Below are positions 55,381-62,754 of a stretch of 64,000 nt of DNA, piece by piece. The position numbers and the translations under genes were made by a program. The notes below the pieces were generated by a model. The model was given only the letters and a program-made list of their open reading frames with translations, did no database searches and was not told where the DNA came from. Position 1 is the first letter of the stretch. Every line of letters starts with the position of its first letter. The DNA lies in NCBI GenBank assembly GCA_963743525.1, contig CAVUQH010000003.1:1-64000 (forward strand), written 5' to 3'. Source of the stretch: an uncultured delta proteobacterium. GTDB taxonomy: Bacteria > Myxococcota_A > Polyangia > Haliangiales > Haliangiaceae.

Positions 55381-56403
55381 GTGAAGCGAGCCTGGCGCCG
55401 TCTGCTCATCGGCATCATCGCCGGGGTGACCATCTTTGCCGGCTTCTCCATCTACGCCGACGTCGGCAAGCTCGGCGATCGTCTGCGCGGGTTCGGCTGG
55501 TGGGCCATGGGCGCTGCGCTGGGCCTGGCCCTGGCCAACTACGTCATCCGTTATTTTCGTTGGGCTCTGTACCTTCGTGTCGCCGGCATCGAGGTTCCAG
55601 CGCGGACCAGCGCACTAACGTTCCTGTCGGGGTTCGCCCTGGCAGTGACGCCGGGCAAGGTCGGCGAGCTCATCAAGAGCTTCCTGCTGCGCGAGACCTG
55701 CCAGGTGCCGATCACTCGCAGCGCGCCGGTGGTAATCGCCGAGCGCGTGACCGATCTGATCGCGCTGCTCGCGCTGGGCGTGGTCGGCGTCGCCATCTAC
55801 GGCATCGCCTCGAGCATGGTCATCGCCGGCGGCGTCGCGGTCGGTGCCGGGCTGCTGGTGCTGTCCTGGCCGGCGCTGGCCCACGCCATCATCCGACTCA
55901 TCGCCCGGCTGCCGCGCCTGCGCAACATGGCCGTGCGGATGCGCGAGCTATACGACGGCCTGGTCTACCTGGTCCGGCCGGACCGCCTGCTGTGGGGCAC
56001 GGCGCTGGGCGCGGTCGCGTGGATGGCCGAGTGTCTCGGCTTCACCTTGATCGTCTCGGCCTTTCCCGGCACTGACGTCCCCTGGGGCCTGGCCACCTTG
56101 ATCTACGCCACCACCACCATCGCCGGCGCGCTGTCGTTCCTGCCCGGCGGCCTGTTGGTGACCGAAGCGACCATGGCCCTGTTCCTGGTCGAGTCGTCGC
56201 GCGGGGTGGATCAGCCAACCGCGGTGGCGGCGACCATCCTCACCCGCCTGGCCACCCTGTGGTTCGCGGTGGTTCTGGGGCTGATAGCGCTGGCGGTCTT
56301 CCGCCGCCTGGCGCCGGGCGCAACCCGGGCGGTCGAGGCGGTCGCCCCGGACGCTCGGGCGGGCCAATCGGAGGCCCCCGCCGACCCGGCCGACGAGCCG
56401 TAA
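55381..56403 (+). CDS. Lysylphosphatidylglycerol synthase TM / flippase-like (UPF0104) protein
   Basis: Multi-TM; RW, TPGKVGE..K, ERVTD, PGGL..TE and RLATLWF. Confidence 0.87.
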   Translation: MKRAWRRLLIGIIAGVTIFAGFSIYADVGKLGDRLRGFGWWAMGAALGLALANYVIRYFRWALYLRVAGIEVPARTSALTFLSGFALAVTPGKVGELIKSFLLRETCQVPITRSAPVVIAERVTDLIALLALGVVGVAIYGIASSMVIAGGVAVGAGLLVLSWPALAHAIIRLIARLPRLRNMAVRMRELYDGLVYLVRPDRLLWGTALGAVAWMAECLGFTLIVSAFPGTDVPWGLATLIYATTTIAGALSFLPGGLLVTEATMALFLVESSRGVDQPTAVAATILTRLATLWFAVVLGLIALAVFRRLAPGATRAVEAVAPDARAGQSEAPADPADEP

Positions 56404-56420
56404 ACGGCTATACTGCGCCC

Positions 56421-57302
56421 ATGACAGGGGTCGACTTCGACTTCGCGCGCTACATCGCCTATCGCCGCGGGGTAGTCCACCAGCGCGCTCGCGACGGCGC
56501 TGCCTACTCCTACGCCGGCGAGCGCAAGCTGCGCCGCGCGCTGGTCACGGCCCGGCCGGTCAGCATCGCCATCGAGGCGACCACCCGACTGTGGAAGAAC
56601 GCGGCGCGCAACGAGCTGCTGGGCACGTCGGTCAAGGTCACCGATCAGCAGTTCCCGCGCGCCCACGCCGCGTTGCGCAAGGCGTGCGAAGCGCTCCACC
56701 TCGAGGTGCCACCGCTGTACGCGGCGCCGTCGAGCTCGCGCGTCACCGCTCAGACCCTGGGCACCGACGACGAACCGTACATCGTCGTCAGCTCGGCGAC
56801 CCTCGAGCGCCTGGACGACATCGAGCTGCTGGCGATCCTGGGCAACGAGCTGGGGCACATCCAGAACAACCACGTCATCTACGCCACCGCACTGCACTAC
56901 CTGACCCACGACTCGACCATGTTCGTGCGCTGGATCGTCAAGCCGGCGGTGCTGGCGCTGCAGGCGTGGTCGCGGCGGGCCGAGATCACCTGCGACCGGG
57001 CGGCGCTCCTGTGCACCCACGACCTCGACGCCACCCTGGCGGCGATCGTCAAGCAGGGCCTCGGCGCCGACCAACCGATCAACATCGAAGAGTACCTGCG
57101 CGACCTGCCCGATCCGCGCAAGGGCATCGGGCGCTTCGCCGAGCTGGCCCACTCGCACCCGTACCTGCCCAAGCGGGTGCAAGCGCTTCAGGTGTTCGCG
57201 GCCGGCTCGTTCTACCGCAAGATTGCCGGCGCCGACCTCGAAGGCGCGCTGTCGGCCGAAGAGGTTGACGCGCAGGTAGCCGACATCCTCAAGGTGATCT
57301 AA
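56421..57302 (+). CDS. M48-family peptidase-like protein (HExxH altered to NExxH)
   Basis: EL..ILGNELGH, WSRRAEITCDRA and SHP...KR. Confidence 0.85.
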   Translation: MTGVDFDFARYIAYRRGVVHQRARDGAAYSYAGERKLRRALVTARPVSIAIEATTRLWKNAARNELLGTSVKVTDQQFPRAHAALRKACEALHLEVPPLYAAPSSSRVTAQTLGTDDEPYIVVSSATLERLDDIELLAILGNELGHIQNNHVIYATALHYLTHDSTMFVRWIVKPAVLALQAWSRRAEITCDRAALLCTHDLDATLAAIVKQGLGADQPINIEEYLRDLPDPRKGIGRFAELAHSHPYLPKRVQALQVFAAGSFYRKIAGADLEGALSAEEVDAQVADILKVI

Positions 57303-62032: not shown

Positions 62033-62052
62033 CCGGACTGTAGGTTCGAGCG

Positions 62053-62754
62053 GTGAGAGACAAACACACCCTGGGCATCGACGAGGCCGGCCGCGGACCG
62101 GCGATCGGTCCGATGGTGATGGCCGCGGTCTGTCTCGACACCCGCGCCGCCCGCGCGCTGACCCGCGCCGGCCTGGCCGATTCGAAGAGTTACGGCGCCG
62201 GCGAGCGCGCACGCGCGATCCGCGCCGAGCTGGCCGGCAAGGTCCGCGCCCGCGCGCTGCACGTGCAGGTCCGGGTCATCGACGTGTCGGTGATCGATCG
62301 GCGCGTGGCCCGCTCGGAGCTCAATGCGCTGGAGCGCGAGGTCGCCGAGCAGTTCATCAACGAGGCGCCGGCGGTCGATCGCGTGGTCGCCGACGGCAAG
62401 GTGATGTTCGCCAACCTGGCCGCGCGCTACCAGCACATGGAAGCCTGCAACGACGGCGAGTCGCGCCACGCCGCGGTGGCAGCCGCGTCGGTGCTGGCCA
62501 AGGTCCGTCGCGATCAGATCTTCGAGCGCATCTGCGCCCGCTACGCGCCGGAGTTCGGCGAGGTCCGCGGCGGCGGCTACGTCAACGAGGCGACGCGCCG
62601 CTTCCTTCGCGCCTTCGCCGAACGCCACCGCTGCCTGCCACCCGAGGCGCGCCGGTCGTGGCCGCACCCGTACCTGTGCGACATCCTCGGGCCGGACTTC
62701 GACCCGTTCGCCGACTGCCCCGACGACCGCGCCGGCCAGCTGTCGCTGCTCTGA
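62053..62754 (+). CDS. rnhB: Ribonuclease HII
   Basis: GIDEAGRG, DSK, ADG, VAAASVLAKV.RD and GY. Confidence 0.9.
   Translation: MRDKHTLGIDEAGRGPAIGPMVMAAVCLDTRAARALTRAGLADSKSYGAGERARAIRAELAGKVRARALHVQVRVIDVSVIDRRVARSELNALEREVAEQFINEAPAVDRVVADGKVMFANLAARYQHMEACNDGESRHAAVAAASVLAKVRRDQIFERICARYAPEFGEVRGGGYVNEATRRFLRAFAERHRCLPPEARRSWPHPYLCDILGPDFDPFADCPDDRAGQLSLL

Follow-up and report, generated by a model that had tools for sequence, protein, structure and literature searches.

The window, the whole stretch of 64,000 nucleotides analysed here, belongs to an uncultured delta proteobacterium of the Haliangiales. A check of its open reading frames (ORFs) between positions 55381 and 62754 reproduced the five co-oriented genes of the preliminary description in position, strand and spacing (17, -1 (TAATG), 3 and 20 nt), and Pfam matches bore out all the identities proposed there, namely a flippase-like protein, an M48 protein, two dynamins, one with a TPR array, and RNase HII (Table 1). 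The GC content of the locus equals that of the genome, and a scan of the locus for promoters and terminators yielded no signal above shuffled sequences. The two dynamin-like genes are the only clear ones in the window genome (G000), which also holds a single M48 gene of the dynamin-linked subfamily and one RNase HII match, the only copy found. Elsewhere in the window, an FHA-domain gene (52566-54921) presents an apparent frameshift near 53900-54050, where the coding bias switches frame, and its two halves share one ORF in all 53 related loci holding both. Transposase genes of the ISL3/IS21 type at the start of the contig and a Tad/Flp pilus locus (prepilin peptidase, RcpC, secretin and ATPase) were also observed, within 952-3824 and at 21743-27693, respectively.

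Table 1. Genes and sequence features of the M48-dynamin locus, in window coordinates.
Feature	Position	Strand	Evidence or remark
Flippase-like LPG_synthase_TM membrane protein	55381..56403	+	PF03706, E 5e-45; neighbour, outside the core
Soluble M48-fold protein, dynamin-associated subfamily	56421..57302	+	PF01435, E 5e-18
Asn codon at the first zinc His position of the M48-fold gene	56844..56846	+	Sequence comparison
DLP1, BDLP/mitofusin-type dynamin-like GTPase, P-loop GEFNHGKS	57302..59098	+	PF00350, E 5e-28
DLP1 hydrophobic trunk tip, predicted membrane paddle	58634..58741 (about)	+	Residues 445-480, Kyte-Doolittle
TPR-dynamin: TPR array of ~430 residues, GTPase domain, helical stalk without hydrophobic tip	59102..62032	+	TPR repeats and PF00350, E 8e-28
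TPR-dynamin GTPase domain, GEFSSGKS	60548-61018	+	Sequence motif
RNase HII (rnhB), conserved neighbour	62053..62754	+	PF01351, E 4e-27

The closest relatives of the locus were found in metagenome-assembled genomes of the Kofleriaceae/Haliangiales, where 80 of 94 loci were kept, with DLP1 proteins 62-70% identical. In these Haliangiales loci the flippase gene is adjacent in 65 of 72 evaluable cases, the M48 gene lies upstream of DLP1 in 78 of 78, and rnhB follows the TPR-dynamin gene in 49 of 49; the TPR-dynamin gene itself lies within 7 kb downstream in 45 of 47 loci, but no more than 21 of 68 have it within 300 nt. Such close synteny is no proof by itself, because dinG (50/53), folK (53/55) and a response regulator (67/68) are equally conserved as neighbours, among which no motility or secretion gene was detected. 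Across 40 distant regions (L111-L150), the flippase gene had no match and rnhB followed the TPR-dynamin gene in three only (L131, L132 and L148). The notion of a five-gene system was hence discarded, in keeping with the earlier caution that the flippase and rnhB may be only neighbours, and the functional core comprises three genes, encoding the M48-fold protein, DLP1 and the TPR-dynamin. The interval between the two dynamin genes is a frequent insertion site. A co-oriented gene encoding a protein of about 345 amino acids with no Pfam match, sometimes present twice, occupies it in L007 (9910-10941) and about 35 other Kofleriaceae loci, and its look-alikes in the Atlas are Myxococcota clusters; other genes are inserted there too.

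Both dynamins present PF00350 matches above cut-off and the G1-G4 motifs of the GTPase domain (GEFNHGKS, DTPG and GKID in DLP1; GEFSSGKS, DTPG and NKID in the TPR-dynamin). The top PDB sequence match of DLP1 is the Nostoc BDLP (2j68, E 1e-21), and Foldseek searches with its AF2 model (pLDDT 85.2) returned BDLP (E 1e-22) and IniA (2e-19); by sequence and fold its nearest kin are Nostoc BDLP, IniA and Cj-DLP1/2. The modelled DLP1 has a helical neck and trunk ending in a putative lipid-binding tip, which corresponds to the hydrophobic paddle that the preliminary description had placed in one of the dynamins. No segment of the window M48 protein or TPR-dynamin exceeded the Kyte-Doolittle cut of 1.6. 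The same pattern holds across relatives, with a hydrophobic tip above the cut in 130 of 131 DLP1 sequences and in none of 66 TPR-dynamin sequences (some genomes being counted twice), and it suggests a division of labour in which only DLP1 would contact the membrane through such a tip.

The M48-fold protein matches PF01435 with 65.9 bits against a cut-off of 20.3. Its AF2 model (pLDDT 88.5) is closest in fold to ZMPSTE24 (Z 8.9, rmsd 3.6, 161 residues aligned), and the top five fold matches are all M48 proteins, with modest scores (Z 7-9) for ZMPSTE24, Ste24, BepA and HtpX; a PDB sequence search gave no match, and a Foldseek search with the model gave nothing under E 0.001. Active M48 peptidases are characterized, in the available text of PMC7950410, by an HExxH motif, a third ligand Glu and an HPx4R plug. 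The putative zinc site of the window protein reads N142-E143-x-x-H146, E188 and H246-P247-x4-R252, preserving the third ligand and the plug but presenting NELGH in place of HExxH, a change on which the preliminary description had not remarked. An assembly error was rejected as the source of this Asn, since an independent contig agrees (56532-56873 aligned without difference) and NExxH is common to 21 of the 120 closest M48 proteins, among which 83 have HExxH and 16 other changes. The motif was also lost independently in family f10 and in L142; in the window clade, as in these two, the gene persists beside DLP1. In the distant M48 sequences the motif is intact in 41 of 43 (some genomes being counted twice), and because these and the 83 closest proteins keep it, catalysis appears to matter in most carriers. 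Judging from its altered motif, the window protein is likely catalytically dead in this lineage, and the ancestral M48 protein was likely an active protease held on a dynamin, and its binding role is what would persist. The earlier proposal that the M48 protein regulates the dynamins thus needs amending, insofar as regulation by proteolysis is unlikely in the window lineage with Asn in place of the first zinc His.

To define the extent of the M48-DLP1 association, orthologues were retrieved from a phylum set of 301 genomes, accepting full-length DLP1 matches below E 1e-100, one split gene in addition, and the best 62 M48 matches (E 6e-32 or better; six weaker ones were dropped). The two sets fall in the same 62 genomes, and the genes are adjacent on one strand in 59 of them; one of the remaining pairs is split by a contig end and the other two lie apart (G037 and G191). 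These figures are read as counts and not as tests, because the carriers are kin and hence not independent. The flanking genes change entirely between families. By the queries used, about 230 of the 301 genomes lack the module, so it does not represent universal upkeep. A search of longer proteins returned four matches, of which two, P0264 and P0265, are M48 proteins fused full-length to DLP1; they are 65% identical, have the junction in common and persist with an intact zinc motif. A cluster mate, P0268, is present on 15 contigs. Two further candidates were dismissed, P0266 because frame changes break its dynamin part and P0267 because it has no dynamin match. Multimer prediction, one of the checks proposed at the outset, scored 0.55 for DLP1 with M48, and the best of three controls scored 0.00. 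The mark for this score was reached by 116 of 157 solved pairs and 2 of 215 mismatched pairs, with scores of 0.60 or under covering only 18 of those solved pairs plus both mismatches. At least 44% of contacts agree between runs, and partner pLDDT is at least 76; the models hence weakly predict a contact between M48 and DLP1. The conservation of the M48 gene beside the dynamins, on which the preliminary description depended, is thus borne out, and the tight link within the trio is that between M48 and DLP1.

The TPR-dynamin presents a looser association. The window stalk alone, used as a query, found 9 of the 301 genomes, and a stalk profile was therefore used instead; it identified 67 genomes, corresponding to 57 of the 62 M48-DLP1 carriers, three f10 genomes and seven f36 genomes. 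Since three of the five missed carriers hold a second long dynamin frame, a TPR-dynamin-like gene is present in 57-60 of the 62, often unlinked. It is encoded next to DLP1, as a pair of paralogues, in the window, f9 and f10, and outside the Haliangiales, f9 and f10 it is co-present but unlinked to M48-DLP1, among neighbours that we take to include rpoN-like and ssb-like ORFs. Family f10 retains, at 25-29% identity, the gene order M48-like gene, DLP1 and long dynamin (followed by rnhB in L131 and L132), and this retention suggests that the operon is old. The claim that the trio forms a unit therefore stands for its M48-DLP1 part, and for the TPR-dynamin in some families only. Among f36 genomes, the five searched yielded no DLP1 and no type-A M48; the f36 loci L253-L259 hold a lone TPR-dynamin with a degenerate GTPase domain (GPxGAGKT, no DTPG or NKxD).

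A divergent M48 protein in L134 led to a sister family with full-length homology to the window M48 protein (hhalign E 7e-85) and named members in Cyanobacteria, Roseiflexus, Clostridium and Acidobacteriota. Its loci were analysed in the best 80 of 405 confirmed metagenome matches, to which all sister-family counts given here refer. Of these, 75 hold a dynamin and 45 three or more, with operons of two to four dynamins in several phyla, and a dynamin lies directly downstream of the M48 gene in 70 of 70 evaluable loci (GC 33-71%) and upstream in 64 of 64. The zinc motif reads HECGH in 78 of the 80 proteins. Dynamins were detected in none of six loci of the next-nearest M48 proteins, two of these loci having little sequence on one flank. 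A quick tree separates both linked M48 families and the f10 relics from eight of nine outgroup sequences by a 95% branch, the ninth, long-branched, falling inside the linked group. Seven non-catalytic residues (F8, T115, N149, E241, A255, F259 and D283) are common to both linked families and mostly absent from unlinked M48 proteins. A more distant M48 gene lies directly upstream of three dynamin-like genes in L242 (4608-11965); its product clusters with the outgroup, where it forms a long branch, and possibly represents a third linked subfamily. In a quick GTPase-domain tree the deep branches lacked resolution, so no sister dynamin was assigned as the counterpart of DLP1.

The sister dynamin downstream of the M48 gene is extended in 14 of the 70 loci, and 12 of the extensions were identified as TIR (L154, L162, L174 and L202), CHAT (L163, L165 and L166) or Ser/Thr kinase (L159, L161, L169, L189 and L215) domains; in L173, a caspase domain is located on another dynamin of the operon. 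Based on this domain content, these operons are a candidate immune system in their own right, ready for phage tests, and hint at an unstudied immune branch. Their neighbours, scanned for 145 of 251 clusters, mainly have metabolic functions; a zinc-ribbon family recurs in 18 loci, and PADLOC returned few matches for the same clusters, mostly to generic domains (raw counts). No module was confirmed among 21 pattern matches in viral contigs, and in plasmids neither DLP1 nor the sister M48 had a relative of full length. Two plasmid regions were opened, neither holding the module: L152 encodes an M48 protein and no dynamin, and L151, a Lysinibacillus plasmid, encodes three tandem dynamins (3966-10632), of which one carries an SH3 domain, has an integrase and fexA nearby and gave no M48 match.

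The interpretation we favour, with belief and doubt in about equal measure, is that the co-inherited three-gene module encodes a machine for envelope remodelling to which an M48 regulator, probably dead in this lineage, is bound. DLP1 would grip the inner membrane through its predicted hydrophobic tip, the TPR-dynamin would likely pair with DLP1 and recruit it to its site, and the M48-fold protein would likely bind DLP1 as a regulatory subunit, probably no longer cutting in the window lineage. By analogy with C. jejuni DLP1/2, DynA and IniA, we infer heterotypic pairing, assembly-stimulated GTP hydrolysis, and membrane tethering or repair. Membrane upkeep is likelier than defence because the window version is single-copy in housekeeping synteny. 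Against the remodelling machine stand the unlinked TPR-dynamin in most families outside the Haliangiales, f9 and f10, the zinc motif kept in most carriers, the absence of the module from most phylum genomes by these queries, and the TIR, CHAT and kinase fusions of the sister operons, which point to immunity.

These fusions are also the main argument for an immune or regulated-death system, in which the TPR array would detect an invader, the M48 protein gate activation and the dynamins act on the membrane, with the myxobacterial version as the fixed representative of a broader defence family. The patchy spread of the sister family over Cyanobacteria, Roseiflexus, Clostridium and Acidobacteriota agrees with such a system, as does the phage limitation that the available text of 10.1101/2022.05.11.491447 reports for the Eleos/LeoABC pair and for DynA. 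We nonetheless consider it unlikely, given that the window copy is single, sits in housekeeping synteny across the Haliangiales at 62-70% identity and belongs to a module found in 26 of 26 f15 genomes, that PADLOC matches are weak for the trio and few and mostly generic in sister neighbours, and that viral contigs yielded nothing. The defence role floated in the preliminary description is accordingly not upheld for the window copy, although domains of immune type do occur in the sister operons.

More doubtful still is proteolysis as the main job, in which M48 would cut DLP1 or the TPR-dynamin on stress, here too through an altered zinc site. The intact HExxH, Glu and HPx4R plug in most orthologues and in 78 of the 80 sister proteins, the retention of E143, H146, E188 and H246 in the window protein, and the analogous stress cleavage of OPA1 by OMA1 described in the available part of PMC11885689 would fit such an activity, but the first zinc His is Asn in the window clade, f10 keeps the gene without the motif, and fusion proteins with the motif intact persist. 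A social or predatory function specific to the lineage, such as vesicle release, prey contact or membrane exchange, has little to commend it: the module is fixed in the Haliangiales, its families include named Haliangium and Bradymonas proteins, and LeoA has been linked to vesiculation (in the portion available of PMC6104087), but the sister family occurs in cyanobacteria and clostridia, and motility and secretion genes are missing from the conserved neighbours. That M48 and the dynamins merely share a conserved gene order and are functionally unlinked, as the syntenic Haliangiales neighbourhood might suggest, is scarcely credible given that M48-DLP1 adjacency outlasts complete flank change, recurs in other phyla and occurs as fusions.

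Beyond the window, we tentatively propose, as something possible rather than probable, a cross-phylum, undescribed class in which multi-dynamin membrane machines have a dedicated M48 protease as their gatekeeper subunit. It would comprise a mobile immune or regulated-death branch, with TIR, caspase-like or kinase domains in operons of M48-bound dynamins, and a domesticated myxobacterial branch that includes the window, in which a sensor dynamin carries the TPR array and the pseudo-protease has been inactivated repeatedly. If true, this class would stand as the bacterial counterpart to protease gating of dynamins. Bacterial dynamin pairs have been studied as two-protein machines, and a third conserved, sometimes fused subunit provides a direct handle on how they are switched on, with natural active, dead and fused M48 versions available for comparison and cultured carriers indicated by protein names, which refer to Haliangium ochraceum for P0116 and to Bradymonas sediminis for P0269.

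The trio represents a real, conserved three-part variant of the bacterial dynamin pair that is apparently undescribed. In line with the preliminary description, which had put forward a candidate undescribed system, PADLOC (2023 release) identified no matching system, returning only weak, partial LeoA/LeoBC domain matches (E 1e-20 to 1e-10, listed without cut-offs) like those of any dynamin. Literature searches, which covered the main text of openly accessible papers, retrieved no account of an operon that joins M48 to dynamins or holds a TPR-dynamin, although supplements of defence-system papers could include it among untested candidates. The term "dynamin" is absent from PMC7159879, 10.1101/2020.09.24.301986 and PMC9239133, and the available text of 10.64898/2026.10.19.760177 mentions dynamins in passing only.

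According to the accessible portion of PMC6104087, most bacterial dynamin-like proteins are paired, and in the Cj-DLP1/Cj-DLP2 pair (PDB 5owv) GTPase activity and lipid binding rise on assembly via an N-terminal domain, with membrane repair as a speculated role. Like the window pair, these are GTPases of the BDLP fold lying side by side, of which one has an additional domain at its N terminus, but that domain spans 119 amino acids against the ~430 of the TPR array, no M48 partner is described there, and the window type has a hydrophobic tip in one member only and a pair that is often unlinked. Nostoc punctiforme BDLP1 (PDB 2j68/2j69) is closest to DLP1 in sequence and structure, with a similar neck, trunk and paddle, yet shares 18% identity over the fold and has no TPR partner or M48 in the source text available. 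Eleos/LeoABC operons likewise encode two dynamin-like GTPases, the Leo-like system being a two-gene one, but in the text available (10.1101/2022.05.11.491447) they are found close to defence systems 60% of the time and have no M48 or TPR; the window module, core and syntenic, has neither their defence-island location nor their patchy spread. With HtpX, Ste24/ZMPSTE24 and BepA the window M48 protein shares the fold and the HPx4R plug, and differs in having no transmembrane segment or signal, in the loss of the first zinc His and in N- and C-terminal helices that only the dynamin-linked families have. OMA1 is a membrane-anchored M48-family protein, whereas the window protein is soluble and likely dead. 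As an analogy only, OMA1-OPA1 nevertheless offers the same pairing as the window, an M48-family protein tied to a dynamin-family GTPase, and the two are described in the part of PMC11885689 available as having co-evolved in animals.
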